Shown one piece after another: positions 2,467 to 57,702 of a stretch of 64,000 bases of DNA. The notes beneath the pieces are model-generated. The model did not search any database. It saw only the letters and a program-made list of their open reading frames with translations, and was not told where the DNA came from. Position 1 is the first letter of the stretch, and the number at the start of each line of letters is the position of its first letter. Origin of the DNA: Nitrosopumilaceae archaeon (GTDB lineage: Archaea; Thermoproteota; Nitrososphaeria; Nitrososphaerales; Nitrosopumilaceae); assembly GCA_965203465.1 (NCBI GenBank), contig CBDBCR010000001.1:256001-320000 (forward strand). The letters are read 5' to 3'. The position numbers and the translations under genes are program-made.

Positions 2467-4209
2467 TCAGAAGCGGATGCCCAAGAGGCCCCCGTCGTCG
2501 CGCGCGTCGGTGAACGTCGCCGCTACCTTGGAGTCGAAATCGAAAGTCGGATCAAAGTCGCCGCGCGGAACCGTGTCCGAGTTTAGCATGCAGACGTACT
2601 GGAACGACTCCTTTTCGGCCTCGTCTGATGCAAGCTGCAAGGCGAGGGCGGTCTGGCGCTCGTCCACGCCGTCGAACAGCGCGCTGTCGTGCACCAAAAA
2701 CCCCGGGGAAGTTTTCCGGCGCGCCCACAGCTTTGCGAGCATCAGATCGTAGCAGAATATCTTCATGTTTTCGAGGCCGGCGCTTCCGGAGCGCTCGATC
2801 TCGACTTTGAAGTCGTAGCCGCCGTCCCCGGTGTCTATGGACAGGGCGCCGGGCGCCTCGTACAGCTTTTGCGAAAAAGAGTTGAAGGCGAGGATCGCCG
2901 CTTCCTTTTGGGCCCTGCGCTCGTCCAGATCCGCGTTTGTCTGCTGTATTGCCGTTTTCACCTCTATCTCGATCCTGTTTTTCTCCTCGCTCAGCTTTTT
3001 CATGTTTTCAAGCTTTGCAGCGACGGCTTCCAGTTCTCCTACCAGCCGCTGGTGGTTTGCCTGCATCCGGGAAAACTCCTCCAGCGCGCCGTGCGTTTCG
3101 AGGATCTTCATTAGTTCGGACTTTTCAAGATCTACCGCCTTCATCCGGGCAGTTCTTTTCTCAATATCGTTTTCTAGGCGGGCGATCTCCGACGCCAGAA
3201 AACTTCTTCGGTTGGCAACTACTTGGCGGTGGAACGCCGTGACCTCGTCCAGTTGTTTCAGCAGCCTTTCTGAAAACACCACTCCGGCCTCCGCATACAT
3301 CTCGGCGACCTGCTCGGCGCTGGCGTCTTTCTCGCTTACGGTGCTGTCCCTGTACGAGGACAGTAGCCTTTTGTCGCCAAAGTTCAAGTTGGACAGGCCT
3401 ATGACGGTTTTGGCCATCTCGTCCGCTTTTGCCTCGACCTCGTAGTACTGCTCGTGTACCCTGAACGCCTTCAGGTTTTTTTCCTCCCGCGCGATCTGGT
3501 CTTCCAGCCGTATCTTGGCAGACTCTATCTCGCCTTTTTTCCCCACCATGTCGGACATGATGCCGGTGGTGACCGCCTTCCTCAACTCCCTGAGGGTTCT
3601 GCGCTCGTCCTGCAAGAGCCGCAACCGCGCCGCAAACTCCCATCCAAGCCCTAGCAGGTACGCGTTGTTCACGTTGATGTCCCACGGCTGTTGCTGTCGG
3701 CTTTGCCTGTAAAATTCTCCGTAGCCGTGCGCCTTGCCGCCGCGCCGGACAAAGTACGAGATCAGGCTCCTGAACGTGGGGTGATATTTCGTCCCGTACC
3801 CAATATCCAAACCGCACATCAGCGCGCCGAGTACATCGTTCCATACAGTTTGTGAGAAATACTGGTCGCCGTTGTGATCGACGGACGGCTCGACCGGCCA
3901 CCCCGAGCAATCGCCCTCAACGACGATGTTTTTTGAGTTGCCGGTGTTTCTGCGTACGTTGTATGTGCGGGTGCCGATGTCAAGCGAGACTACAAACTCC
4001 CATCCGTCGACCTCTTTTTTGGCCAGCGTTCCGGAAGGTTTCCCGCCCAGGCAGAAATGCACGATCTCTGTCAACGTAGACTTTCCAAGTCCGTTACGAG
4101 AGTCCCGTTCGGTCGCCTGCTCTACGCGATCGGCCAAGATTACGTTCATGCCTCTTTTGAAGAGGATTTTTCTAAAAGATGGCCGATCGGAGCTGACGGA
4201 GCGTATCAT
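2467..4209 (-). CDS. lmuB: SMC/Rad50-like ABC ATPase (DUF2326-type) of an ABC-three-component/Lamassu system
   Basis: Walker A RNGLGKST, long coiled coil, signature GSAG, Walker B FLVHDS..FDGVD; ATGA overlap with the upstream small gene. Confidence 0.85.
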   Translation of the reverse strand: MIRSVSSDRPSFRKILFKRGMNVILADRVEQATERDSRNGLGKSTLTEIVHFCLGGKPSGTLAKKEVDGWEFVVSLDIGTRTYNVRRNTGNSKNIVVEGDCSGWPVEPSVDHNGDQYFSQTVWNDVLGALMCGLDIGYGTKYHPTFRSLISYFVRRGGKAHGYGEFYRQSRQQQPWDINVNNAYLLGLGWEFAARLRLLQDERRTLRELRKAVTTGIMSDMVGKKGEIESAKIRLEDQIAREEKNLKAFRVHEQYYEVEAKADEMAKTVIGLSNLNFGDKRLLSSYRDSTVSEKDASAEQVAEMYAEAGVVFSERLLKQLDEVTAFHRQVVANRRSFLASEIARLENDIEKRTARMKAVDLEKSELMKILETHGALEEFSRMQANHQRLVGELEAVAAKLENMKKLSEEKNRIEIEVKTAIQQTNADLDERRAQKEAAILAFNSFSQKLYEAPGALSIDTGDGGYDFKVEIERSGSAGLENMKIFCYDLMLAKLWARRKTSPGFLVHDSALFDGVDERQTALALQLASDEAEKESFQYVCMLNSDTVPRGDFDPTFDFDSKVAATFTDARDDGGLLGIRF

Positions 4210-4430
4210 GACTGCCTCCGCAACATGCCGTCCTCATACGCGACTATTCCGAGCATGAACAAGAGATCCAGGCCCAGGATGAACCTGTCGAACGTGCCTA
4301 CTTCGGGCCTGCGCCGGCACCTGTCCCAAAGCACAGTCACGGTGGAGGCGCGTTCCATCTCCTCTATTATGACGCCGCCTGCATAAAGCATGGATCTCGA
4401 AAGCGTGAGGTGTTTTGTAGGCAGTATCAC
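4206..4430 (-). CDS. lmuC: ABC-three-component middle component (MC6-like / LmuC)
   Basis: 74 aa, MILPTKHL...SMLYAG...FILGLDLLFMLG; lies between effector and ATPase with 4-bp overlaps on both sides. Confidence 0.8.
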   Translation of the reverse strand: MILPTKHLTLSRSMLYAGGVIIEEMERASTVTVLWDRCRRRPEVGTFDRFILGLDLLFMLGIVAYEDGMLRRQS

Positions 4431-5167
4431 TTTTCAAACACCTCGCATTTTTCGAACAAATAGACAAGCACCGCCAGTCCGGCAGCCTCGTAAAGAAAGT
4501 CCTTGTTCTGGCATGCAAACAGCCGCAGGGCTTCAAAGAGATCGTCTCCGACAAGCCCCTTGCCCGACTGCATCTCGTATTGACGTACAAAGCCTGCTGC
4601 CAACCGCTCTCCAAAGCGGGCGTCCGGATGCTTGTCTATAAAGCTGCCCACCTGTTTTACCTGTGTCGTTCCGATTAGGATGAGCTGGCGCGTGCGTGCG
4701 GACAGGTGGTTTTTGTTGATTTTCTCTCGTATGTGGGTGAGAACATACGACGGTTCGCCCTCGGGCTCGTTTTCCGCCAAATACCGCGTGATGCCGTCCA
4801 ACTCCGCAAAGGACACCTCGTGCATGTGTTCCTCCGTGGATTTTATTATCCATTCTTCGTGTTCTTGCTTGATTCTGCGCAGCCTGCCGATCGTGTATGT
4901 CTTGGGATCGCCGTCGATCTTTTTGTGGCAGTTTGCGCATACGAGGATCAGGTTGCCGGCGGAGTTCCTGTCGGACTCGGGCATTTCTGCGTCAAATCTG
5001 GCCGAACCCGGCCTGTTGCCGGCAATGTGCGCCAGCTCGCCCAAAACGCCGCCGTATGCCGAATCGTCTGCAGTTTCCACCAGTCTTTTGCGGCATTCGG
5101 GCAGCGCGCAACGGTTCCCGCTGCTAATCCAGACGGGCCTTTTAGAGCGATCTGGCGGGCGTTCCAT
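4427..5167 (-). CDS. lmuA: HNH endonuclease effector fused to an ABC-3C C-terminal domain (LmuA-type)
   Basis: SGNRCALPEC...AHI...NLILVCANCHKKID HNH; C-terminal EKINKN...YLFEKCEVFEK. Confidence 0.85.
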   Translation of the reverse strand: MERPPDRSKRPVWISSGNRCALPECRKRLVETADDSAYGGVLGELAHIAGNRPGSARFDAEMPESDRNSAGNLILVCANCHKKIDGDPKTYTIGRLRRIKQEHEEWIIKSTEEHMHEVSFAELDGITRYLAENEPEGEPSYVLTHIREKINKNHLSARTRQLILIGTTQVKQVGSFIDKHPDARFGERLAAGFVRQYEMQSGKGLVGDDLFEALRLFACQNKDFLYEAAGLAVLVYLFEKCEVFEK

Positions 5168-5298
5168 GCCCTGCCGCGTTTTTGATCGTATTTAAAACCA
5201 GAATGTCTGATCGGCGCACCAGCGGCTCGCTGAAAATCGCCGACACCGGCCGGCGACCCGCAGCTGCACGGAAGGCTCGATCCGCGGAGGCCCCAACG

Positions 5299-5490
5299 CT
5301 AAGCCTTCCCCCTGATGTCTATGCTGAATTCGCCGCCTCCGCCCAGTTCTTCGTGCATCAACTCCACGGCTTCGAGCGCGTTGCGCGTCGTCCGCATTTC
5401 TGCCCTGCGTTACGACGCCGAGTTCGGGGCATCTTGCCACAAACATCCCGTCCTCGCCGCCCTCGAGCGTCACCACATGCGCGTCTCTTA
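5299..5490 (-). pseudogene. Frameshifted HicB-like antitoxin
   Basis: EDGMFVARCPELGVVTQGRNADDA continues after a frameshift as NALEAVELMHEELG...IRGKA*. Confidence 0.65.
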
Positions 5491-5738
5491 GATTGGACTG
5501 CGCCGTGTGGGCCTGCACGCCAATCTCTGTATGAACAACCAACTCTGTCGGCGTTTTATCCGCTCCAATATATTACGATTGGTGCGGCGCCGGTATGCGC
5601 CGGCCCTCCTACCGGACAGGCTCGTCGGTGGCAGGAGGGGGCCAGCCAAAGACGGCGTGTTACGACCGTCCGCGATATGTTTTTAATGGTCGGTATTAGC
5701 GCATCGCCATGTCTCCTGTATTCGCCCGCAGCTTTAAC

Positions 5739-5756
5739 GGGGGGGGGGGGGGGGGG
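5739..5756 (+). repeat. G18 homopolymer directly after a TATA-like TTTAAC, upstream of the 5800 operon
   Basis: gctttaac followed by 18 G, then catt. Confidence 0.85.
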
Positions 5757-5799
5757 CATTTGCGGCATACGTTGACATTTTGCACGCGAGCTGGTCTCC

Positions 5800-7626
5800 A
5801 TGAAGCTCCACTGGTCGTTCCCGCCCACCAGCGGAGGCGTATCCCAGGGCTTCCATGACAGCGGGCAGGCGATATTTGGCGCGGACGCGTGGGACAAGAC
5901 AGTGCGCGAGATCATACAAAACTCGCTGGACGCCGTCCGCGACTCGGGCAAGCCTGTCACAGTCCGCATATCTCGCATGCAGGTGCCAAGCTCCGAGATC
6001 GGCGCGGCAGATCTTGCAAGGCACATCGAGAGCGCGCTGAAGCGCACGCGCAGGGACGGGTACGAAAGGGGAGTCAAGTTCTTCCAGCGCGCCCTCAAGA
6101 TCCTGAAAAAGCGCCAGATTCCCACGTTGGCCATAGTCGATTCCAACACGTCGGGTCTGGTCGGCCAGAAATGGAACGCGCTTGTGCACGAAGAGGGCAC
6201 GTCCAGCAAGGGCACGATGAAGGCTGCAGGCGGAAGCTTTGGCATAGGCAAGAACGCCCCGTACCTGATCTCGGGAGTCAAGACCATCTGCTATTCGACC
6301 CGCTACTTGGACAGGGGCAGGCAGGAGTGGTTCATAGCGCGCTCCAAGATATCGGCGCACCAGGATCCCAAACAAGCGGACAGGGAACTACAGCACATAG
6401 GGTTCGGCACCAAACCCAAAGTCGCCAAAGGAGAGCGCGCCCCGCCAACCCGGGGGAAGGAGATCTACCGGGGATTCCGACTTGCCGAGCCCGGCACGGG
6501 CATCTTCATCGTCGGCTCTGACATACCCGAATCGTGGATCAGCAAGTCGGAGCAGTCGCTGGCGCGCAACTTTTTTGCGGCAATACACGAGAAGAAACTA
6601 GAGATCGTCATAGACCAGAGGCGCCTCGACTACGAAACGCTCGATTCGGTGTTCGAATCTGACAAAAAGCACAGGACGTACCACTACTACCGCCTTATGC
6701 GCGGATCAAAGCCCGCTTACGTAGAGGGCGAGTTCGGAAAGTTCGAGGTCTATCTGTCCACGGACGAGGAAGACGCGCCAAACCGCATGGCGTACGTCAA
6801 CCGGAGGGGGATGATGATCACAGACGTCCGGCAGTTTGGGAAAAACCCGTTCCACACGTCGGTGGGACAGGGCTGGGCCCAATACGCGGTGGTGGTAAGG
6901 GCCGCGGACGACAAAACCGACGAGCGCGTGCGGGCCATGGAGCCGCCCAGCCACGACTCGATAGAATATGAGCGGATCAACGACCGCGACCACGCCAAAG
7001 TCCGCGGCCAACTCAAGGAGATACAGAAAAAGATCGAGCAACTGACGCTCGACGCTCTCAACCAAAGCGGCAAATCCGGCGAGACCGTCTTGTCAGAGAT
7101 CGAAGCGCTCGGGGAAGAGGGCCCAGACGGCTCTGGAAACGGCAAAAGCGACCAGAATCTGACAATCCGCACGATACGCACAAGGCACAAAAAAACCATG
7201 GACAAGCCCGGCGATCCGGGCCCAGAGATCATAGTGGACAAACCTGGCCACGACGGCAAGAAAAGAGTTCCAAAGCCTCCCCAAGAACCCTCTCCAGAGA
7301 CGGTCATCAAGGGAATCTCGTCACTTGACAGGCAACGCGTAATGCGCCACCGCAACAAGATCAGAGTCGCCTTTACCCCGCGGGCGGACAGCGTGCATTT
7401 TGCGCTAAAGCCGGCAGGCGAGGAGCCAAAACGCCAACGCTCAATCAGCATAAAGCAGGCAAAGATTGTCCTGCCTGCCGATATACGGGCAGACGTTCGA
7501 GACGATGTGGTGTCTATACGTGCAGGCGACTGCCCGAGGGTTGTAGTGGATCTAGAGGTGGACGACGATGCGGCCTATACAGGCTACGAAATCCTAGAGT
7601 ACGTCGTTCCGGGTGGCGCGCGATGA
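5800..7626 (+). CDS. GHKL (HATPase/MORC-like) ATPase domain protein
   Basis: Bergerat-fold motifs VREIIQNSLDA, D-SNTSGL, GGSFGIGK and GT. Confidence 0.75.
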   Translation: MKLHWSFPPTSGGVSQGFHDSGQAIFGADAWDKTVREIIQNSLDAVRDSGKPVTVRISRMQVPSSEIGAADLARHIESALKRTRRDGYERGVKFFQRALKILKKRQIPTLAIVDSNTSGLVGQKWNALVHEEGTSSKGTMKAAGGSFGIGKNAPYLISGVKTICYSTRYLDRGRQEWFIARSKISAHQDPKQADRELQHIGFGTKPKVAKGERAPPTRGKEIYRGFRLAEPGTGIFIVGSDIPESWISKSEQSLARNFFAAIHEKKLEIVIDQRRLDYETLDSVFESDKKHRTYHYYRLMRGSKPAYVEGEFGKFEVYLSTDEEDAPNRMAYVNRRGMMITDVRQFGKNPFHTSVGQGWAQYAVVVRAADDKTDERVRAMEPPSHDSIEYERINDRDHAKVRGQLKEIQKKIEQLTLDALNQSGKSGETVLSEIEALGEEGPDGSGNGKSDQNLTIRTIRTRHKKTMDKPGDPGPEIIVDKPGHDGKKRVPKPPQEPSPETVIKGISSLDRQRVMRHRNKIRVAFTPRADSVHFALKPAGEEPKRQRSISIKQAKIVLPADIRADVRDDVVSIRAGDCPRVVVDLEVDDDAAYTGYEILEYVVPGGAR

Positions 7627-8468
7627 GCCACGAGACCCTGCTGCTGCCACACCCCGTGCTCAGGCCGGACGGCTTTGACTACAAGGACGCGAGTTTTGAA
7701 ATGGAGGTCAAGGCCAGACGGGCCGACGGCCAGCTGCTCGCGGACGTTTCGTTCGCGTTGTCCAGCTCCACCCTGAACGAGATGGTCGAATCGGGCCGGG
7801 CGCGGTTCTTTGTGCTCGCAAAATGCGCTAGGACGTACCACCGCTGCGCGTGCAGCTCCGGCCGCACCGCGCTCCGGCTCGCAATACCGTCGGGAGACGT
7901 CACGGACTCGGTCAAACTCACCCCGTACGTGGTCGCCTCCCGGGAGATCCAGTGGTTTGCATCCGACGAGCACGACGACGAGATCAGAGACATGGGTGTA
8001 TCTGGAACCGTGCCGCCCGGCGCGATACTGGCGGTGGGGGAGTCGCGCGCGATCGAGCTCGATTCCCTCAATTCCGTCCAGACTTACATCAAGCTGAGCT
8101 CGCAAGAGAAGATGAGCAAAGGCCTGTATTCGCTGGGAGCTCAGGGGGACTCTATCGTGATTACGATGAATCCCGAGACATACGCGGCCGTCACCCTGAT
8201 ACGCGGCCATGCAAGGGTCCTGCTGTATTCTTCGATATACACGGCAGCCCTCGAATACGCCATCCACAAAATGGACGACTGCAGCGAAAGCAAGTGGGCC
8301 AAGGCGCTCAGAAAAGCGTTGGAGGAAAACGGCATAGACGCCGAAACCGCGCGCGACAAGGCCAACCTGCACGCGCAGACCTTGCTGAAACTACCGCTGG
8401 CGATGCTCATCGATTGGCACAGCGCGCGGGGCGGGGTTTCGCCGCCGGGAGAGGAAGATGCCGAATAG
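7623..8468 (+). CDS. Hypothetical protein (PHPVL N-terminal motif), partner of the GHKL ATPase
   Basis: 281-aa ORF with ATGA overlap to the upstream gene and overlap with the downstream gene. Confidence 0.7.
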   Translation: MSHETLLLPHPVLRPDGFDYKDASFEMEVKARRADGQLLADVSFALSSSTLNEMVESGRARFFVLAKCARTYHRCACSSGRTALRLAIPSGDVTDSVKLTPYVVASREIQWFASDEHDDEIRDMGVSGTVPPGAILAVGESRAIELDSLNSVQTYIKLSSQEKMSKGLYSLGAQGDSIVITMNPETYAAVTLIRGHARVLLYSSIYTAALEYAIHKMDDCSESKWAKALRKALEENGIDAETARDKANLHAQTLLKLPLAMLIDWHSARGGVSPPGEEDAE

Positions 8469-10080
8469 CCTGTACAAGCTTTCGGACGAGGCGTTCATCT
8501 GGCTGTACGATAACGTCGACAGCAACCTCGATGCGTACAGAGATCCCGACGCGGACTTTGGCCTCTTGCTGAGCAAGTTTGGCAATTATCTAGAGCCGGT
8601 CAATGCGCGCTTTGAGCGGCCACCCGAACTCCGGGATCCGGCCGAGTACGACGCAAGCGCCAGAAAAAGCCACCTTTCGGACGTACAGGCGCTGGATTTC
8701 TACCGCTCCATCAAGGGGATGACGCCCGAGCTTGCAGCAGATCCGCGAGTTCTTGCGTACATGAACCATTTCCACCTGCACCGCTACGGCATAAGCCGGT
8801 GGCCCGTAGGCGGCAAGGATCCGGCCCACCACGCGCGCCTCCACTGGCTCACGCAGGGCACTGAAATCAGCCAGATATGGAACGGGAGCATCAGCGGACG
8901 CATGTGGTGGATAGCGCACACGGCCACCATGGCGGCGAAGGCGTCGGGCGGAGCATTCGAGGCCGAAGAAGCGATGCAGATCTTTTCGCGCTCGCCCGAA
9001 TACTACCACCGGACGATGGAATACGCCGTGCTCCGGAACCCGCTTCTCATGGCAGAGTGTGTGCGGGCATTGATGCGCGAGGCGCGCGGCATTAACCGCG
9101 ACGGGTACCGGGAGATTGGCATGGAACTGAACCGGGAGGCGGGCGCGCGGTTGCTGGATTCGCTCGATCGCGCCAGTTTGCGAGATCTGGTCAAGAGATC
9201 CGCGGGCCGGATAATGAAGGAGCCCAAGTTCGTGACCAGCAGGCACGATCTTGCCGGCGTCAGGAAATACCGGGTCCTCAGCTTGGGGGCGGGCGCGCAG
9301 TCGACGGTGCTGGCCCTGATGGCCGAAGAGGGGTGGGAGGGGCTGGAAAAGCCCGATTTGGCAGTCTTTGCGGACACGCAGTGGGAGCCGCCGGCAGTCT
9401 ACGAGCACCTAAAGTGGCTGGAAGGCAAGCTCTCGTACCCGGTAGCGCGTGTCACGGCGGGCAACATCCGGGAAAACATCATGCGCGGCGTCAACTCGGA
9501 CGGCGACAAGTTTCTTGACGTGCCCGTGTTCCTGCGCAACCGGGACGGCACGCCTTCGGTGGCGGCAAGGCAGTGCACCAACCACTACAAGATAACGCCC
9601 ATACGCAAGGAGATCCGGCGGCGGCTGCAGATCCCGGACGGGCAGAGGGCCCCCAAGGACATACAGGTGGAGATGTGGCTGGGAATAAGCGCCGACGAAT
9701 CGGAAAGGATGAAGCCAAGCAGGGACGAGTGGATAGACAGGCGCTTTCCGCTGGTCGAAATGGATCTTACGCGGGCCGACATCTACAACTGGTTCGCTGA
9801 CCGGTATCCGGGACAGCGCCTGCCGCGCAGCGCCTGCGTGGGGTGCCCGTACCACGACGACATGGAATGGAAGTGGCTAAAGGAGAACGAGCCCGATTCC
9901 TTCCGGGAGGCGGTGCTCGTGGACAGGGCAGTGCGCACCATCCCGGAGGCGCGCGGGTCGCTGAACGGAGAAGCGTACCTGCACAGGTCGAGGAAGCCTC
10001 TGGACGAAGTGGACTTTGACGGCACGCGCGACTATGACGAGTATATGGCCAGCGAATGCGAGGGGTTGTGCGGTGTCTGA
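8458..10080 (+). CDS. Fusion: DUF6339-like N-terminal domain plus PP-loop / PAPS-reductase-like (adenine nucleotide alpha hydrolase) domain
   Basis: N-terminal A(A)DPR..AYM.H, Y..SRW, NGSISGRMWW; C-terminal VLSLGAGAQST, FADTQWEP, RQCT..YKI.PI, LGISADE..R, SACVGCP, ECEGLCG. Confidence 0.7.
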   Translation: MPNSLYKLSDEAFIWLYDNVDSNLDAYRDPDADFGLLLSKFGNYLEPVNARFERPPELRDPAEYDASARKSHLSDVQALDFYRSIKGMTPELAADPRVLAYMNHFHLHRYGISRWPVGGKDPAHHARLHWLTQGTEISQIWNGSISGRMWWIAHTATMAAKASGGAFEAEEAMQIFSRSPEYYHRTMEYAVLRNPLLMAECVRALMREARGINRDGYREIGMELNREAGARLLDSLDRASLRDLVKRSAGRIMKEPKFVTSRHDLAGVRKYRVLSLGAGAQSTVLALMAEEGWEGLEKPDLAVFADTQWEPPAVYEHLKWLEGKLSYPVARVTAGNIRENIMRGVNSDGDKFLDVPVFLRNRDGTPSVAARQCTNHYKITPIRKEIRRRLQIPDGQRAPKDIQVEMWLGISADESERMKPSRDEWIDRRFPLVEMDLTRADIYNWFADRYPGQRLPRSACVGCPYHDDMEWKWLKENEPDSFREAVLVDRAVRTIPEARGSLNGEAYLHRSRKPLDEVDFDGTRDYDEYMASECEGLCGV

Positions 10081-10402
10081 AATCGCAGATCTTCGTTCTC
10101 CGCGTGCGCCGTTTGGCAGCGGTTCTCATGAACGCATTTCAGCCAGTCCTGGCCTGTACGCATTCTGGCTACGCGGTACCTGCCTGTATGTGGGGATGAG
10201 CGAGGATCTAAAGCGGCGGATATACCAGCACGAGAACTTCGAAGACAATCCAGAGCTGGACAGGCATTTCCAGGCCTACCCGCACGAGATCGAAATATCG
10301 GTAGCCTACAAAGACGCCGACTCGGTTGTCTTGCGCGGACTTGAACAAGAGGCTATCATAGAACTGAATCCGTTGGCTAACGTACAGAGGGACAAACCAT
10401 GA
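10073..10402 (+). CDS. GIY-YIG nuclease family protein
   Basis: PGLYAF...LYVGMS.DLKRRI.QH...LE...I.ELNP.AN; GTG start overlapping the upstream stop. Confidence 0.8.
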   Translation: MSEIADLRSPRAPFGSGSHERISASPGLYAFWLRGTCLYVGMSEDLKRRIYQHENFEDNPELDRHFQAYPHEIEISVAYKDADSVVLRGLEQEAIIELNPLANVQRDKP

Positions 10403-11634
10403 GCTTGTACCCGGCGCTTAAAGGCAAGTTTGGCAGCACTGAGTATTTTCTGATCTCCATGCCGGTAGGAGATCTGGTCCAACGGGTTAGGTTTCCGTCT
10501 GACATGCCAGAATGGGACGAAAAATCACTAGAGGATAGGTACCAACGCAAACTACAGTCAAAGCGCATAGAGAAAGTACTCGTACCCTATTTCGCATCCG
10601 ACAATAACCGGTTCTCCGGTTCGCTGGTGATGGCGGTAATGGCCAATCAAGTGCGCTTTGAACCGCTCTCTACAATAACACGTGGACCTGCGACCTTTCC
10701 CATCCCGTACCAAGATCCAAGCAACGGGATGGGTTTTGTGACGTTGGTCTCCGAATCACTGGTACCGCTGGACGGCCAGCACCGAGCTATGGCGTTCAAG
10801 AAGGCAATTGAAGAGGCTCAGGGAGAAGCAGCGCACTCCGGCGGACTCGCGCAGGACATGATCTCTGTCATACTTGTGCAGTTTGACGAGAAAAAATCTC
10901 GATATATTTTCAACAAGATAAACCGCTATGCCAAACCCACATCCAAAGCAGACAAATTGATCACCGACGACGACGACGCGGTGGCCGTGATCACGCGGAG
11001 TCTGATTTCTGAAAACGTGTTTCCGGCAAAAATCGTCCGCCACATACCCAACACGCTAGGAAAGAAGGCGACCGAGTTTACCACACTGGCTACGCTGTAC
11101 GAAGCAAACAAAAGGCTGATTCCTGCACTACCCATCAAGAGCACCTGCAAGCCGGAAAGGCTGGGCGAAAAAGAACGGGAGGCCAGACTCGCAGATCTGA
11201 AGAAAGAATGGGGCAGGTTGCTTTCAGGAATTGGCCTGTGGAAAAAAGCCACCGCAGATCCCGAGGATTCAGGAGCTCGCACACGTATCAAGCTGCGCGA
11301 GCAGTATGTATTGGGCAGACCTATAGGACAGCTGGCGCTGATCAACGGTTACGTGCGGGCATGCGAGAATGATCGGGGCGTGGATCGCGACAGGTTGGTG
11401 GCAACACTGGATCGGGTTGACTGGAAACACGGCGCAAAGCACTGGCGCGGACTGCTGGTCACGCACAACGGCAAGATGATGTCGGGCAAGCCTGCCTCCC
11501 GCAATGCTGGGTTGTTCATAGCTTACCTGATCGGCACAAAACTAACCCCACAAGAGAAAGAGAACGTGCGGACTTTCATGTACGGGCATGCATCGGGACG
11601 CAATCTTCCGTCTCCGTTGCCAAAGATTGACTGA
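10399..11634 (+). CDS. DGQHR domain protein (DndB-like, ParB/Srx fold)
   Basis: YQRKL...R, PLDGQHR, IFNKINRYAKP; ATGA overlap. Confidence 0.85.
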   Translation: MSLYPALKGKFGSTEYFLISMPVGDLVQRVRFPSDMPEWDEKSLEDRYQRKLQSKRIEKVLVPYFASDNNRFSGSLVMAVMANQVRFEPLSTITRGPATFPIPYQDPSNGMGFVTLVSESLVPLDGQHRAMAFKKAIEEAQGEAAHSGGLAQDMISVILVQFDEKKSRYIFNKINRYAKPTSKADKLITDDDDAVAVITRSLISENVFPAKIVRHIPNTLGKKATEFTTLATLYEANKRLIPALPIKSTCKPERLGEKEREARLADLKKEWGRLLSGIGLWKKATADPEDSGARTRIKLREQYVLGRPIGQLALINGYVRACENDRGVDRDRLVATLDRVDWKHGAKHWRGLLVTHNGKMMSGKPASRNAGLFIAYLIGTKLTPQEKENVRTFMYGHASGRNLPSPLPKID

Positions 11635-11712: not shown

Positions 11713-12612
11713 TCACGCCTGCCTGAGGTGCAGCGTGGGCGACGAGCGCGCGCGCCGTATGGCGTCCCTGACCCACTCCTGCGGGAAGACTATCCGCTTG
11801 GGCACGAAGATGTCCGTCGATTCGACCGAGCCGGCCTTCCTCACCAGGCCGGCGGCCTCGTCCATGCCGAACACGCTGTCGCTGTACATGAACAGCACCA
11901 CCTGGTCGCGCGTGCAGATGGGCGCGCGCATGTACGAATCCGAAAAGCGCCCGTCCAGCTCGCGCTTGGCGCGCTCGGCGCTGCCGCGCACCCAGGCCAG
12001 CACCACGTAGGGGACGTACCGGCCCAGCCGAGCCGGCTCGTACAGGGCCGTAAACTGCACGGCCTCGTCGGCCTGGAGCTTGTCGAGCGACCTGGCGACG
12101 GTGCGCGCCGAAAGGCCCGTCTGCCGCGCCACCGAATCTATCCTGCGGCGCGGATCGTCCAGCAAGGCGTCGATGACCTCGAGGTCGGTGCGCGTCAGCC
12201 CCGCCCCGGACGTCGGCCCGCCGGCCTCCAGGGTGGTAAGTACCCGCACGTCGTCGCCGAGCGCCTCGGACGCGAGGTGCGTCTTGGACACCGCGGCCCC
12301 CTCCACCACTATGCCGCGCACCGTCACGCCGCCCACGCACGGCACGGTATAGAACGGCTCGCCTATCAGGCGCAGGCGCCTCAGCTTGGCCTCGGCCAGG
12401 TCCCCCGAGACCACCACGTAAAACACGCCGTACCCGAGCGCCGGCGGCTCGACGCCGACCGCGTACCCCGCCACGGCGCCGGCCTTTTCCATCTTTGCTA
12501 TGCGGGCCCGCACGGCCGGCCCCGATATCCCGACCGCTTTTCCCATCTGCCTGTCCGATTCGCGGCAGTTGCGCACGAGGCGGGCCAGTATCTCCATGTC
12601 AGTTTTGTCCAA
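11713..12612 (-). CDS. Lrp/AsnC-family transcriptional regulator with two HTH domains
   Basis: MDKTDMEIL...ISGPAVRARIAKM and a second LTRTDLEVIDALLDDPR HTH. Confidence 0.8.
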   Translation of the reverse strand: MDKTDMEILARLVRNCRESDRQMGKAVGISGPAVRARIAKMEKAGAVAGYAVGVEPPALGYGVFYVVVSGDLAEAKLRRLRLIGEPFYTVPCVGGVTVRGIVVEGAAVSKTHLASEALGDDVRVLTTLEAGGPTSGAGLTRTDLEVIDALLDDPRRRIDSVARQTGLSARTVARSLDKLQADEAVQFTALYEPARLGRYVPYVVLAWVRGSAERAKRELDGRFSDSYMRAPICTRDQVVLFMYSDSVFGMDEAAGLVRKAGSVESTDIFVPKRIVFPQEWVRDAIRRARSSPTLHLRQA

Positions 12613-20498: not shown

Positions 20499-20561
20499 CC
20501 GGATCCCCGGCGGGCAGGCGAGATAAAAACCGTAATTACCGGCCCTTTGGGCAAAGTGCGC

Positions 20562-21101
20562 GTGGGCGGAACCGAGGTGCTGCGCGAGGACCACAGGCAC
20601 GTGCGGCGGCTGGATTCTGTGATCGTAAAGTGCTACTCTGCCTTGGAATCGGGCGGGGGGGTGACGCTCGAGGACATGCGCCGCATCACGTGGGTGATAT
20701 CCGAGTTCATAGACGCCATACACTATTCGCGCGAGGAAGACTCGCACTTTGCGTGCGTCTCGGCGTACGGCTCTTTGAACGAGCAGGTGCGCAAACTCCT
20801 GATAGAGCACGAGTTCGGGCGCAGGATAGCCTCCAGGCTGTCCGGGTACGTGCGCGAGTGGGGCTCGGGGCGCGGGCCCCTGGAGCCGGTGATCCGGTAC
20901 CTGAGGACGTACCACATCTACTTGGAAGACCACTTGGCCAAGGAGGACAGGTTCTTTGACGAGGCCGAGGGGATCCTGTCCGCAGAAGAGGACGCCGAGC
21001 TCCGCAGGCAGTTCCTGTCCGTGGCCGCCTCCGCGCGGACCGTCTCGGAGATGGTCGCCGAGCTCGAATACCTGGAGGGGCGGCCCTGGTGCCGCGCCTA
21101 A
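20562..21101 (+). CDS. Hemerythrin/HHE cation-binding domain protein
   Basis: LREDH, HYSREE, LIEHEFGR, HLAKED motifs; the real gene is the 3' end of the 925-aa shadow ORF. Confidence 0.85.
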   Translation: MGGTEVLREDHRHVRRLDSVIVKCYSALESGGGVTLEDMRRITWVISEFIDAIHYSREEDSHFACVSAYGSLNEQVRKLLIEHEFGRRIASRLSGYVREWGSGRGPLEPVIRYLRTYHIYLEDHLAKEDRFFDEAEGILSAEEDAELRRQFLSVAASARTVSEMVAELEYLEGRPWCRA

Positions 21102-21133
21102 GATACAAATACGCCGCGCCCGGGGCCTCGGCG

Positions 21134-22090
21134 TTGAGACTTTTTGAGACAGGCAAGGGCGGATTTGAAGAGATCGAAGAGATTGATTTCAAACTAGAGT
21201 CGGAGATCAAACGCACGGTTGTAGACAACTTTGGCGTGTTTTTTCCCGGCTTGGAACTGATCGCGAGCGAGTTCACGATAGGGAACAATCACCTAGACGC
21301 GCTTGCTTTCGACGACGAGAAAAAAACATTCGTTATCATAGAATACAAGAGAAAAGACAACCATGACATAAAAGACCAAGTTTCTATCTACTATGACAAT
21401 TTGCTACAAAGTAAAGCAGAGTGCATTAACGCCTTAAACGAAAAGAGGCACGAGTCTGCGAGACCGGGCGACTTTGTGAAGATGAAAGACATATCGTGGG
21501 ACAAACCGTACCTGATACTAGTCAGGCCAGAATTCTCCAAATCCCAGATCCAAGCATCAAATTCGATGGATCAACGAGTTACTAAACTTTACGAGATTCG
21601 CAAGTATCCAAATCACCTGACTATATCACAAGTCAATGTAGCGGGCAAAGAACAACCTACAAAACGCTCCAAGCGTACAAAAAAGTCTCGCTCTGTTGCA
21701 CGTCCTGTCCATTCTGAAGCTGACTGGCTTGCTGGCAAATGTGGCGGGCCAAAACTCTCACAACAGATCCGTGATCTGTACTTTACTCTAAAGGAATCCT
21801 TGCTTGCTGAGTTCCACTTAGAGCACGTACAGAAGCAGCGATATGCCACATTTGATCTAAATGGTGATAGGGTGTGTCGTGTGGATCTACGCAAAAACGA
21901 ACTACAAATCACATACTCGACCGACAAAACAGATCTCTTGCCGCTCAATGACTTCGTAAAAGCTCATTCTACAAGTGGAATTAAGTATGGAATAGGCCAC
22001 CACCGTTCTTACATATCTACAAAATCCGACGTATCGCGAGCTCTAGAATATGTAGATCTTGTGTGCAAGGACAAGTCTGGCTCATCATAG
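21134..22090 (+). CDS. NucS/DUF91-like PD-(D/E)XK endonuclease with probable DUF5655 C-terminal domain
   Basis: FKLESEIK, SEF, LDALAFD, IIEYKR, Q...Y; C-terminal GIGHH; lower GC than the flanks; TTG start after ACAAATAC. Confidence 0.7.
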   Translation: MRLFETGKGGFEEIEEIDFKLESEIKRTVVDNFGVFFPGLELIASEFTIGNNHLDALAFDDEKKTFVIIEYKRKDNHDIKDQVSIYYDNLLQSKAECINALNEKRHESARPGDFVKMKDISWDKPYLILVRPEFSKSQIQASNSMDQRVTKLYEIRKYPNHLTISQVNVAGKEQPTKRSKRTKKSRSVARPVHSEADWLAGKCGGPKLSQQIRDLYFTLKESLLAEFHLEHVQKQRYATFDLNGDRVCRVDLRKNELQITYSTDKTDLLPLNDFVKAHSTSGIKYGIGHHRSYISTKSDVSRALEYVDLVCKDKSGSS

Positions 22091-52100: not shown

Positions 52101-52316
52101 GCCTCCCCTTGCGCCAACTTTGTATAAGAGTGTTTACGGCTTTAGCCCGCTTGGTTTAGGCACGGCGAGCACCCACTCGCGAATATCCGAACTAGCGGAT
52201 CCAAGACATGCCTAGACGGGTGTCTGAGCACCGACTTGCAACGCATGCGCCCGCCCCTCCCGGCCTATCGTGTTTAACAAAACCGGATTCGTGGGGGGGG
52301 GGGGAGAGCTGAGCGC

Positions 52317-55887: not shown

Positions 55888-57702
55888 GTATGCACTCACC
55901 TCCCCATCCGACGCCTGAGACGGACTGACGCTGCCCGTAGCGCGTCCGGCGGCCCGTCAGGAGCGGTCAGGCAACAGCCGCCGCCGGAGCCGGTAGCTGC
56001 CCCGCCTCGGCCCCGGGCGGCCTCGACAGGCCGGAGGCGGGCGAATCGAATACCGACCAGTCGCGCGGCGCCGGCGGCCCGGGGTTGAACATGTCCCATC
56101 CGGGGTCGCGCAGCATCTCGACTACGGCCCTGCACGGAAAAATATGGTTCATGCCGCACGTCATGATGAACGTCAGCAGCCTGGAAAAGACCTCGCGCCC
56201 CTCCGGCGTCGTGATCTGGTGGCGCACGTTGCGGTGCCTGACCGGGCCGTCCCTTATGGCAAGCTCGGTGGCGTTGTTGTGCGGCGGCATGCCCGGGTAC
56301 GACAGGAACGTGAACATGTCCGGCACCGCCTTGGCCAGGTGGTTTTTCGCCTTGCCTTCCGGGTACGCCGAGATCATCGACCGCACCTCGCGGGTAAGCT
56401 CCGTCACGGTGAACGGCGCGGCCGTCTTCATGCGCTTGATCTTGTGGTAAAAGCCCGAGGCCTGCTCGTGCCTCGCCCGATCGCCCGCGCCGCCGTCCAC
56501 GGCCGGCGCCTCCACGTGGCCGAGCAGGTGCCTCCAGCAGCACTGCCGGTCAGCGAACGCGTTGTACGACTGGTTTCTGTCGGAGACCACGGGCAGGTGC
56601 AGGAGCCAGCCGAAATGCTCCCGCAGGAACGGGATACTCTTGTGGGTCGTGGCCACGACGAACGCCGCGCGCTTGCATATGAACACCCACACGGTGCCCA
56701 CCTTGCCGACTATCCCTATCTTGATGCCGGTCTCGTCGCCCTGCACGAAGTTGCACGTCAGGAACGCCTGCTGTATGAGGTACAGCTGCCTGTCCAGCGC
56801 GCAGGAGACGGCCTTGCGCGCCGAGGCTATGGCAGTCTCCGACACCTTGAACTCGAAGAACGATTCGAGAAGGCGCGAAATGTCCGCGTCGGTGCACCGC
56901 ATCCCGTACAGCTCCGTTATCAGGCCCAGCAGCACCGGCCCCATCGACGTGCCCTCCAGGAACGGCGACGGGGCGACTATGCGCTTCTTGCAGTCGGGGC
57001 ACCACCCCGTCTCCAGGACGGCGGTGAACGTGACTACCTTTTTGCACTTGTCGAAATCCGAAACCGTCTTGTGTATGCATTCCCCGCGCTCGATCCGCGC
57101 CCCGCACCCGCAGCGCGAGACGTGGTACCTTATGCACAGCACCGGCACGTTGGCGTGCGAGACGCCGGCGTGCCCCATCGGCGGGCCCCTCTTGCGCCCC
57201 TTGCCGTCCGGCCGCACCGGCCTGTCCGAGCCGGACCCGTCGCTCCCCCGCGCCCCGTGCTTTTTGCGGTACTTGTTGCGCCTGTGGTTGAACTGCGACT
57301 TTGTCGACGACGGGGCGTTGGGGCCCTCGTACAGGGCCAGCCTGGCCTTGTACTTTTCCTTCTCTGCCCTCTCCGAGGCCGCCTGCTCTTTCAGTACCAC
57401 GATCTGGTTGTCCCGGTCGAAGATCGTGATGTGGGCCGCGACCAGTTCCCCGCGCAGCAGCACAGCTTCCGACGTCATGGGCGCGGCCCGAAAGACCCCG
57501 GATCTAAAGGTGTCGATCAATTTTTGTTGACTTTTTGTTTACTCTGTCTTGACAACGGGAGGATGGACAGGCCCCGGTCGGGGCGGCCCGGACGGGCGCG
57601 CGCCGCGGCTGCGGGCGCCCGACCGTGGGTTCACTCGCCCCCGTAGTGCGTCAGATTGGGCGTTTCGTGCCTACGGGCCGGGGGGGGGGGGTGAGTGCAT
57701 AC
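55888..57702 (-). mobile_element. IS66-family element (single-ORF, ISBst12-like)
   Basis: Terminal inverted repeat GTATGCACTCACC at both ends; 9-bp direct target duplication TTTAACAGG (55879-55887 and 57703-57711). Confidence 0.92.
55967..57520 (-). CDS. IS66 transposase
   Basis: Coiled coil, NAPSS, Zn finger, DETG, SD...Y, QCCWRH, NNATELAIR. Confidence 0.9.
   Translation of the reverse strand: MIDTFRSGVFRAAPMTSEAVLLRGELVAAHITIFDRDNQIVVLKEQAASERAEKEKYKARLALYEGPNAPSSTKSQFNHRRNKYRKKHGARGSDGSGSDRPVRPDGKGRKRGPPMGHAGVSHANVPVLCIRYHVSRCGCGARIERGECIHKTVSDFDKCKKVVTFTAVLETGWCPDCKKRIVAPSPFLEGTSMGPVLLGLITELYGMRCTDADISRLLESFFEFKVSETAIASARKAVSCALDRQLYLIQQAFLTCNFVQGDETGIKIGIVGKVGTVWVFICKRAAFVVATTHKSIPFLREHFGWLLHLPVVSDRNQSYNAFADRQCCWRHLLGHVEAPAVDGGAGDRARHEQASGFYHKIKRMKTAAPFTVTELTREVRSMISAYPEGKAKNHLAKAVPDMFTFLSYPGMPPHNNATELAIRDGPVRHRNVRHQITTPEGREVFSRLLTFIMTCGMNHIFPCRAVVEMLRDPGWDMFNPGPPAPRDWSVFDSPASGLSRPPGAEAGQLPAPAAAVA

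Follow-up and report, generated by a model that had tools for sequence, protein, structure and literature searches.

Introduction

The gene sets established for the phosphorothioation of DNA are, in the available text of PMC12914056, dnd, ssp, tdp and BREX type 4. In this work, we set beside these systems, as well as beside the GmrSD/BrxU nucleases and the candidate system PDC-M33, a five-gene operon from an archaeon of the Nitrosopumilaceae (assembly GCA_965203465.1), most likely a thaumarchaeal sponge symbiont. The operon occupies positions 5800-11634 of the window, i.e., the whole stretch of 64,000 nucleotides that was analyzed (contig CBDBCR010000001.1, positions 256,001 to 320,000, forward strand). 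It encodes, in this order, a predicted GHKL-motif ATPase (gene 1), a protein with a fibronectin type III (FnIII)-like domain (gene 2), a DUF6339 domain fused to an SspD-like PP-loop enzyme (gene 3), a GIY-YIG nuclease (gene 4) and a DGQHR-domain protein (gene 5). An earlier note, drawn from the nucleotide sequence alone, had proposed a DNA-modification defense operon at this place. We do find a single operon, located on an island acquired horizontally and encoding a PP-loop enzyme of the DNA-sulfur type, an ATPase, a nuclease and a DGQHR protein, and we find that its relatives adjoin phosphorothioate-dependent restriction modules; its affiliation to known systems and the identity of its neighbor had to be corrected.

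Genes 1 and 2 and the N-terminal half of gene 3 match, in the same order, the A, B and C models of PDC-M33 (PADLOC PDLC04582, PDLC04583 and PDLC04586; 2.8e-76, 3.8e-34 and 4.8e-18, respectively), which is among the 145 bioinformatic PDC candidates in the available part of 10.1101/2024.01.29.577857, so that the earlier statement that the layout matches no recognized system does not hold. The PDC-M33C model spans 247 positions, and DUF6339 is stand-alone in the two plasmid examples described below, whereas in the operon an SspD-like domain is joined to C and GIY-YIG and DGQHR genes come next. With SspABCD-SspE, the operon shares a PP-loop enzyme homologous to SspD and, downstream, a DGQ[HQ]R ParB-like domain together with a nuclease, as in SspE; a true SspE even follows the core (genes 1 to 3) in two related loci, L014 and L023. 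Unlike this system, the operon is devoid of SspB (DUF4007) and SspC (P-loop) and contains instead the GHKL-motif ATPase, the FnIII-like protein and DUF6339, its sensor and its nuclease are two proteins, the latter being of the GIY-YIG and not of the HNH/DUF1524 type, and there is no adjacent sspA. As in Dnd, a DGQHR/DndB-family protein adjoins the PP-loop enzyme, and PbeABCD follow the core in five relatives, but gene 5 does not reach the cut-off of the DndB equivalog, the PP-loop half does not resemble DndC and neither DndD nor DndE is encoded.

In BREX type 4, BrxP is described as an SspD-SspB fusion making phosphorothioate (PMC12914056, in the text available). The operon follows a similar logic, in which a domain of the 3'-phosphoadenosine 5'-phosphosulfate (PAPS) reductase type is joined to an accessory domain and would act together with an ATPase, although the fusion partner in gene 3 is DUF6339 and not DUF4007, and no Lon genes are present. 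When the models of SspB, SspC, DndC, DndD, BrxP, BrxC, PglZ and BrxL were searched against the five proteins, no match was obtained at E 0.01. The same text indicates that tdpC alone can suffice for phosphorothioate synthesis (PMC12914056). Single-gene synthesis would fit the stand-alone PP-loop genes described below (43 loci, plasmids and phages); the Tdp system is set alongside by description only, and no Tdp chain was among the matches of the sequence and structure searches in the PDB. Finally, GmrSD/BrxU enzymes couple a ParB/Srx-type DGQ(Q/H)R nucleoside triphosphatase (NTPase) domain to a nuclease (PMC4619093, in the part available) and in 12 related loci the corresponding slot holds GmrSD-like proteins; the version of the operon differs by being split in two genes, by its GIY-YIG nuclease and by its linkage to a modifying enzyme.

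Literature searches returned no paper on PDC-M33, on DUF6339 or on phosphorothioate combined with PAPS reductase and GHKL, and one unrelated plant paper only for MORC combined with PAPS reductase. The neighborhood screen of PMC12914056 required, in its available description, a P-loop NTPase beside the PP-loop gene and would therefore have passed over a GHKL-linked set. The five-gene arrangement has not been described before.

Results

A DUF6339 domain fused to an SspD-family PP-loop enzyme

The five co-oriented open reading frames (ORFs) overlap at all four junctions, by 4, 11, 8 and 4 bases, as the earlier note had it (Table 1). The longest ORF in the frame of gene 4 begins at TTG 10016; the overlap of 8 bases with gene 3 follows from placing its start at the GTG codon, which lies eight bases past a GAGGGG sequence.

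Gene 3 encodes a fusion protein. Its N-terminal half contains a DUF6339 domain (Pfam PF19866, residues 80-246, 1.6e-18) for which structural searches listed no match and the protein atlas gave no usable one. The AlphaFold2 model of the whole protein has a predicted local distance difference test (pLDDT) score of 86.6. The PADLOC SspD model matches residues 272-492 (2.5e-19), in part only (model positions 2-202 of 277), and the profile of the gene 3 family aligns by hhalign with the canonical SspD encoded elsewhere in the same genome (96.9%, E 1.9e-10, 32% identity), the shared elements being the PP-loop and two cysteine motifs, RxCT with C373 and CxxC with C460 and C463. With the DndC of this genome the same comparison gives 0.6%, and with an ORF upstream of its sspC that might be SspB, 0.7%. 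As judged from these profiles, the C-terminal half is a homologue of SspD and is not DndC-like; hence, of the two enzymes to which the PP-loop protein had earlier been likened, SspD stands and DndC does not. Its PP-loop motif reads SLGAGxQST, and C373, C460xxC463 and a C-terminal ECEGxC tail are invariant, C534 and C538 lying within this tail, which is disordered and recalls the mobile Cys tail of PAPS reductases.

The predicted fold of this half is closest to PAPS/adenosine 5'-phosphosulfate (APS) reductases and 4Fe-4S sulfur transferases, with VIA Z scores of 11.8 to 7rge (167 residues, root-mean-square deviation 4.0), 10.9 to 2goy and 10.5 to the 4Fe-4S enzymes LarE and NcsA. CysH (6vpu_G) aligns to residues 261-540 of the model, tail region included. 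When PDB sequences were searched with the products of genes 1, 3 and 5, or with the profile of the gene 3 family, nothing meaningful was returned.

Table 1. Coordinates of the operon, of the adjacent homopolymer and of the divergent neighbor in the window
Feature	Position	Strand	Basis
Gene 1: GHKL-motif ATPase (predicted), PDC-M33A-like, 608 aa	5800-7626	+	PADLOC, motifs
Gene 2: PDC-M33B-like, 281 aa, FnIII/Ig-like beta-sandwich then helical bundle	7623-8468	+	
Gene 3 (540 aa, 8458-10080), N-half: DUF6339/PDC-M33C, ~residues 1-262, all-helical	8458-9243	+	
Gene 3, C-half: SspD-family PP-loop ATP-pyrophosphatase (predicted), PAPS/APS-reductase fold	9244-10080	+	
Gene 4: minimal GIY-YIG nuclease (109 aa, start codon GTG 10073)	10073-10402	+	
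Gene 5: DGQHR-domain (DndB-like, ParB/Srx-type) protein, 411 aa	10399-11634	+	
G18 homopolymer, 44 nt 5' of first start codon	5739-5756	+	sequence
ABC-3C DUF2326/CTD10 ABC ATPase	2467-4209	-	
ABC-3C MC6 middle component	4206-4430	-	
ABC-3C HNH + CTD10 effector	4427-5167	-	

Conservation of the core and diversity of the downstream modules

Relatives were collected by a pattern scan of data holding one genome per species, which gave at least 553 confirmed stretches; 80 loci, mostly from metagenome-assembled genomes of sponge symbionts, were taken from these and compared by tblastn and clustering. The conservation that the earlier note had asked to see is present and is not due to chance, the fused core (genes 1 to 3) recurring in 37 of the 80 loci (L003-L039) and the complete five-gene order in four (L003-L006, all Nitrososphaerota), with 36-74% protein identity. 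These five-gene relatives are labelled Nitrosopumilaceae or Cenarchaeaceae and come from sponge or marine metagenomes. Among the 37 core loci, tblastn recovered gene 2 in 36 and clustering did so in the last, and the sequence of L007 stops 95 bases past gene 3. The fusion protein has 465 homologues in a word-index search, and all 120 of those listed carry DUF6339 (503-567 aa). Between archaeal and bacterial members, the gene 3 protein is 50-74% identical.

The genes downstream of the fusion are diverse, as indicated by one to three representatives scanned per cluster. SspE is found in L014 (1.2e-236) and L023 (9e-240), PbeABCD in L012, L015, L017, L027 and L028 (PbeA 2e-170 and 3e-199), full GmrSD-like proteins in L008, L011, L012, L013, L035 and L036, GmrSD_N/HEC-05-like ones in L019, L020, L024, L025, L028, L034 and L035, distant DGQHR proteins in L016, L018, L021, L036 and L039, and a trio composed of a helicase, a GHKL protein (MzaB-like) and a PLD protein in L009, L022, L026 and L030, the remaining core loci having other or unrecognized genes. 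Overall, a DGQ[HQ]R-type protein stands beside the core in 22 of the 37 loci (SspE 2, full GmrSD-like 6, GmrSD_N-type 6, DndB-like 8), or in 23 when the NsnA-like protein of L031 is counted as well. In the 43 other loci, the PP-loop gene is stand-alone; it is followed by GIY-YIG and DGQHR genes, without conserved neighbors, in 12 of them, and by the helicase-GHKL-PLD trio in about 21-25.

A quick tree, calculated by maximum likelihood from 81 rows of the PP-loop domain (midpoint root, support by the Shimodaira-Hasegawa-like approximate likelihood-ratio test, SH-aLRT), groups the fused domains (38 rows, SH-aLRT 94), which suggests that the fusion of DUF6339 to the PP-loop enzyme arose once. Nested among the fused forms of bacteria is a clade (99) made up of the six archaeal five-gene sequences; because the root is a midpoint only, the direction of transfer is not readable from this tree. 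The stand-alone PP-loop domains followed by GIY-YIG and DGQHR genes form a separate clade (99), as do those followed by the helicase-GHKL-PLD trio (26 rows, 99), and the GIY-YIG/DGQHR cassette hence pairs with two PP-loop lineages.

Several modules around these relatives deserve mention on their own. The trio, made of a ResIII/DEAD helicase, a GHKL protein (HATPase_c_3, MzaB-like) and a PLD nuclease, follows stand-alone SspD-like genes, e.g., in L048, L052, L055, L056, L061-L065, L068-L078 and L080, and its helicase and GHKL members also follow the canonical sspCD of the window's genome (L092:3608-7563). We considered that it might be SspFGH and rejected this identification, SspF being described with a Walker A motif and SspH as FtsK-like in the available text of PMC8092258; the trio is rather a candidate for an undescribed phosphorothioate-linked restriction module. 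In three bacterial loci (L014:1178-4863, minus strand; L023:14702-17425; L038:9695-13469, minus strand), the core directly adjoins a second divergent trio. Its members are a PDC-M33A-like ATPase (1e-24), a protein of ~265 aa that resembles gene 2 and one of 306-332 aa without a match. L015 and L027 encode, ahead of PbeA and past the fusion gene, a protein of ~800 aa (L015:9478-11958, L027:9653-12022), for which a labelling as SspE, based on position, was withdrawn since PADLOC gives no match at 1e-8.

Genes 4 and 5

Gene 4 scores 23.6 bits with the Pfam GIY-YIG model (cut-off 22.6), and the catalytic residues Y29, Y39, R49, H53, E91 and N103 are invariant in 11 homologues. Gene 5 matches the DGQHR domain model TIGR03187 (103 bits, cut-off 58.85) and Pfam DndB (3.3e-35), stays below the cut-off of the DndB equivalog TIGR03233 (81 vs 328 bits) and shares 23% identity with the DndB of this genome. 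Together with the Pfam and PADLOC matches and the fold of gene 3, these results uphold the earlier calls of DUF6339, PP-loop/PAPS-reductase-like, GIY-YIG and DGQHR proteins. The motifs QR (49-50), DGQHR (125-129) and FxxxN (171-175) of gene 5 are invariant in 17 sequences. In the available part of PMC4619093, the GmrS/DUF262 domain of GmrSD-type enzymes, SspE included, has QR, DGQ(Q/H)R and FxxxN motifs as in DGQHR domains and is interpreted as an NTPase of the ParB/Srx type. By analogy, and in view of the 22 core loci (of 37) with such a protein adjacent to the core, genes 5 and 4 look like a split version of the design of SspE and GmrSD, with a ParB-like sensor/NTPase and a nuclease. Co-folding of the two proteins, run without controls, scored 0.00, a value that speaks neither for nor against a complex.

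Genes 1 and 2

In gene 1, residues 1-453 align on positions 1-438 of the 627 of the PDC-M33A model, which leaves the C-terminal 155 residues outside the match. Searches with gene 1 in Pfam (0 families, E<=1), NCBIfam and PDB sequences gave no match, and the protein atlas returned unnamed clusters only (612-666 aa). The GHKL motifs are invariant in 28 homologues, namely the N-box E37/N41/D44 (ExxxNxxD), the G1 box D114...G119 (DxGxG) and the G2 box G145/G148/G150 (GxxGxG), and argue for the earlier GHKL call, which Pfam does not confirm: the match of the gene 1 profile to the HATPase_c_3 family is weak (hhalign, 56% probability, E 1e-4) and Pfam HATPase_c matches 2 of the 28 homologues, at E 0.023. 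For these two reasons, we name gene 1 only a GHKL-motif ATPase, an activity that is predicted and not proven.

Gene 2 adjoins gene 1. Its AlphaFold2 model (pLDDT 91.8) shows the sandwich and the helical bundle with confidence; the structural matches of the sandwich are generic (VIA Z up to 8.8, residues 10-147), no catalytic fold was recognized, and residues 148-281 have no listed structural match.

Relatives that adjoin phosphorothioate-dependent restriction

SspE and PbeABCD are described, in the available parts of PMC8092258, PMC12914056 and PMC7848895 (the latter citing archaeal Pbe work), only as partners of phosphorothioate modification. A modifier was thus sought in the five genomes behind the SspE or PbeABCD loci L012, L014, L015, L023 and L027. 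The DndC model matched in none of the five, and in each of them the best match of the SspD model was the fusion itself (~1e-14). The other SspD-model matches are a stand-alone relative in G402 and weak, stop-containing ones (one each in G401 and G402), while Pfam PAPS_reduct detected extra CysH-like genes in two genomes and a weak match in a 603-aa ORF of G403. As there is no dndC and no better SspD match in these genomes, the fusion is the only evident candidate modifier for their SspE and Pbe modules.

The two halves of the system on plasmids and phages

Both halves of the system occur apart from each other. A tblastn search with gene 1 gave 24 plasmid records, of which two contexts, in Ligilactobacillus and Deinococcus, were opened. 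Both have three genes in the PDC-M33 order, with a stand-alone DUF6339 (264 aa) and no PP-loop gene; the Ligilactobacillus trio is embedded in a type I restriction-modification locus and the Deinococcus one adjoins dcm/vsr. The word-index search, a method too insensitive to count such proteins, returned one stand-alone short DUF6339 protein of 288 aa.

The PP-loop half has matches in 252 plasmid and 86 phage records (29-47% identity over residues ~245-540). Two of these contexts were opened. In the Thermus phage P23-77, the homologue is ORF3, two genes past the replication gene (L095, 1889-2656), and in a conjugative plasmid of Agrobacterium vitis it is translationally coupled to the anti-restriction gene ardC, near a ParB-domain gene (L096, 5022-5960). 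The PP-loop genes thus stand alone on mobile elements and next to restriction-like modules in cells, as DNA methyltransferases do. Such a methyltransferase-like distribution favors a self-sufficient DNA-marking enzyme.

Genomic island, neighboring genes and host genome

The host genome comprises 2.26 Mb in 4 contigs, with a guanine-cytosine (GC) content of 0.65. Within the window, GC drops from ~0.68 in the flanks to 0.53-0.62 over 2500-11500, and the operon is part of a low-GC insertion of 9.8 kb that separates a PhoU-domain gene (941-1909) from a gene for an AsnC-type regulator (11713-12612, minus strand). The placement between core genes proposed earlier is thus correct, the two genes being about 0.56 kb apart in relatives (553-559 bp in G317, G068, G044 and G147). 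The gap measures 1.3 kb in G406 and 6.35 kb in G407, and the PhoU/AsnC intergenic site is a recurrent integration spot. The insert of G407, which belongs to the same genus, contains ORFs of an IS630-type DDE transposase and a weak STAND/AAA NTPase (L097, contig 2, 1006500-1013200). In G147, the five-gene system is present at another place of the chromosome, and DUF6339 was found in 3 of the 401 genomes sampled in the phylum, the window's genome included. The operon resides on a horizontally acquired, mobile island. Elsewhere in the window, the segment ~20500-22000 (GC 0.48-0.57) may be another foreign one.

The divergent neighbor (2467-5167, minus strand), taken in the earlier note for a Lamassu system, is an ABC-3C system that matches the PADLOC candidate PDC-M68 A/B and is LmuB-like only distantly. 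The intergenic region that separates it from the operon has 632 bp and contains the G18 run, of which the membership in the system is uncertain. The genome has 49 G/C homopolymers of 10-18 bases, nearly all G on contigs 1, 2 and 4 and nearly all C on contig 3, and 20 of the 49 lie at most 150 nt upstream of a same-strand ORF, against a mean of 3.1 and at most 8 in random trials (n = 200, crude map of ORFs). Two further runs are in the window (52293-52304 and 57680-57691) and another is located 76 nt ahead of the genome's dndB. In one contig of run X5, the G18 run is 6 bases shorter. These homopolymers may be a promoter or 5'-untranslated region element, or a switch of variable length. The operon stretch itself is present in 14 sequencing runs from 6 studies, in all cases as contigs, and the contigs of four studies span nearly the whole operon with 90-100% identity.

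The earlier statement that DndD/E and SspBC are lacking is true of the locus, but another contig of the genome (contig 3) harbors two canonical clusters. One, at ~343.6-352.8 kb (L092), has SspC (6.6e-298) and SspD (5e-110), then the helicase and the MzaB-like GHKL protein; the other, at ~828-834 kb (L093), has DndA (4e-140), DndB (2e-110), DndC (4e-180) and DndD (2e-160), dndB adjoining dndC. With the operon of the window, this makes three PP-loop "DNA sulfur" loci in 2.26 Mb, and the operon is hence not the sole possible source of phosphorothioate in its genome. A sulfur donor is available in trans, as a DndA/SspA-type desulfurase (4e-140).

Discussion

Starting from the observed gene order and coupling, domain identities, SspD homology and modular context, we tentatively favor, as a plausible reading, an Ssp-like and probably phosphorothioate-type self-marking module with new accessory proteins and a split sensor-nuclease akin to SspE and GmrSD. 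In this reading, of which we infer the substrate, the chemistry, the restricting module and the defense role itself, genes 1 to 3 would form a first module, the PDC-M33 trio with its DUF6339 protein covalently fused to an SspD-family PP-loop enzyme. The PP-loop domain would spend ATP to activate a phosphate of the DNA backbone and exchange an oxygen for sulfur, which a cysteine desulfurase encoded elsewhere in the genome may deliver via the conserved cysteines and the CysH-like C-terminal Cys tail, so that host DNA would become marked with phosphorothioate or a chemically similar group. The GHKL, gene 2 and DUF6339 parts could fill the DNA-handling and ATPase role of SspB/SspC or DndD/DndE. 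In the second module, the ParB/Srx-type DGQHR protein would read DNA or its modification state and control the GIY-YIG nuclease, which would nick or cut invading DNA. The sensing of modified viral DNA, offered as an alternative in the earlier note, is neither favored nor disfavored by these findings.

Several points weigh against this proposal. PDC-M33 is known as a bioinformatic candidate only, and its trio, being found without a PP-loop gene in both plasmid contexts opened among the 24 records, cannot generally depend on a PP-loop enzyme for its activity. The GHKL assignment of gene 1 is a prediction from motifs and a 56% hhalign match only. Fold and profile place gene 3 among PP-loop sulfur/adenylate enzymes and cannot name its substrate, the structure lists contain no solved phosphorothioation enzyme (SspD, DndC or TdpC), and a search for a DndA-type cysteine desulfurase up to 8 kb away detected none in the 80 loci. 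Verified SspE is present in only 2 of the 37 core loci, the ~800-aa protein of L015 and L027 having no PADLOC match. Moreover, canonical DndB is a regulator of modification and not an effector in the available text of PMC4507180 and PMC12914056, and genes 4 and 5 could read marks made by the canonical Dnd or Ssp clusters of the host instead.

The main rival to a self-marking module formed by genes 1 to 3 exchanges the roles, the PP-loop domain acting as the modifier together with the GIY-YIG protein, which would nick DNA, and the DGQHR protein, which would bind DNA or be a ParB-like NTPase, in parallel to SspD, SspB and SspC or to the DndB-DndC pairing, and the PDC-M33 trio becoming a restriction or effector arm tethered by the fusion. 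It would account for the 12 loci in which the PP-loop, GIY-YIG and DGQHR genes are alone without conserved neighbors, for the PDC-M33 trio standing alone as a defense candidate in restriction-modification loci and for the adjacency of dndB and dndC in dnd operons, including that of this genome; Ssp modification, in addition, needs a nickase and an NTPase (PMC12914056, in the text available). We nevertheless regard it as unlikely, since no nuclease fold or motif was recognized in genes 1 and 2 or in DUF6339, and since stand-alone PP-loop genes occur on phages and plasmids without both partners. In 33 other core loci, furthermore, the position of the GIY-YIG and DGQHR genes is filled otherwise, including by SspE, Pbe and GmrSD-like proteins, and because known restriction modules occupy this very position, the slot fits restriction better than an accessory to modification.

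A defense system relying on a different chemistry, i.e., base thiolation, amidation or adenylylation of DNA, or acting on a substrate other than DNA, would agree with the absence of a desulfurase gene from the 80 loci, with the PP-loop fold being common to many ATP-pyrophosphatases (GMP synthetase, TilS, QueC and CBASS Cap9 are near-tied, with Z of 8-10.6) and with the motif SLGAGxQST where the genome's own SspD and DndC have SGGKDS. The sole significant profile match to a characterized family is however SspD, with cysteines in common, the top folds are sulfur-handling PAPS/APS reductases to which the region of the C-terminal Cys tail aligns (6vpu_G), and SspE and PbeABCD are co-located with the fusion in genomes without another dndC or sspD, all of which make such a chemistry quite improbable to us. 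Finally, a PDC-M33-type system and a small PP-loop/GIY-YIG/DGQHR system might be independent and simply packed in one transcription unit, gene 5 being perhaps a transcription regulator of the DndB type, as canonical DndB is in the available part of PMC4507180. Defense islands do pack unrelated systems, an ABC-3C system is located directly beside the operon and both halves occur separately elsewhere. This we consider very doubtful, given that DUF6339 and the PP-loop domain form one polypeptide in 38 sequences with both halves strongly conserved, that all the junctions of the operon overlap and that 4 other genomes preserve the order of the five genes, with protein identities of 36-74%.

Conclusion

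If genes 1 to 3 make the mark, the presence of SspE or PbeABCD in genomes with neither dndC nor an SspD match better than the fusion would be explained. It would also provide a biochemical handle on the PDC-M33 candidate and suggest a function for many of the "PAPS reductase-like" genes of phages and plasmids. A bolder proposal, which we put forward as a speculation on the unlikely side, is that the PP-loop family to which the C-terminal half of gene 3 belongs consists of autonomous, single-protein modifiers of the DNA backbone. They would travel solo on phages and conjugative plasmids, as beside ardC, to escape restriction, and would serve in cells as the marking half of a modular, restriction-like kit in which the GHKL, gene 2 and DUF6339 trio would be a new machine, driven by ATP, for directing or reading the mark. 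The family is a common one, with at least 553 confirmed stretches in data holding one genome per species. Were its members autonomous modifiers, they would represent a fifth, widespread architecture of phosphorothioate-type immunity, exchanged between the bacterial and archaeal symbionts of sponges.

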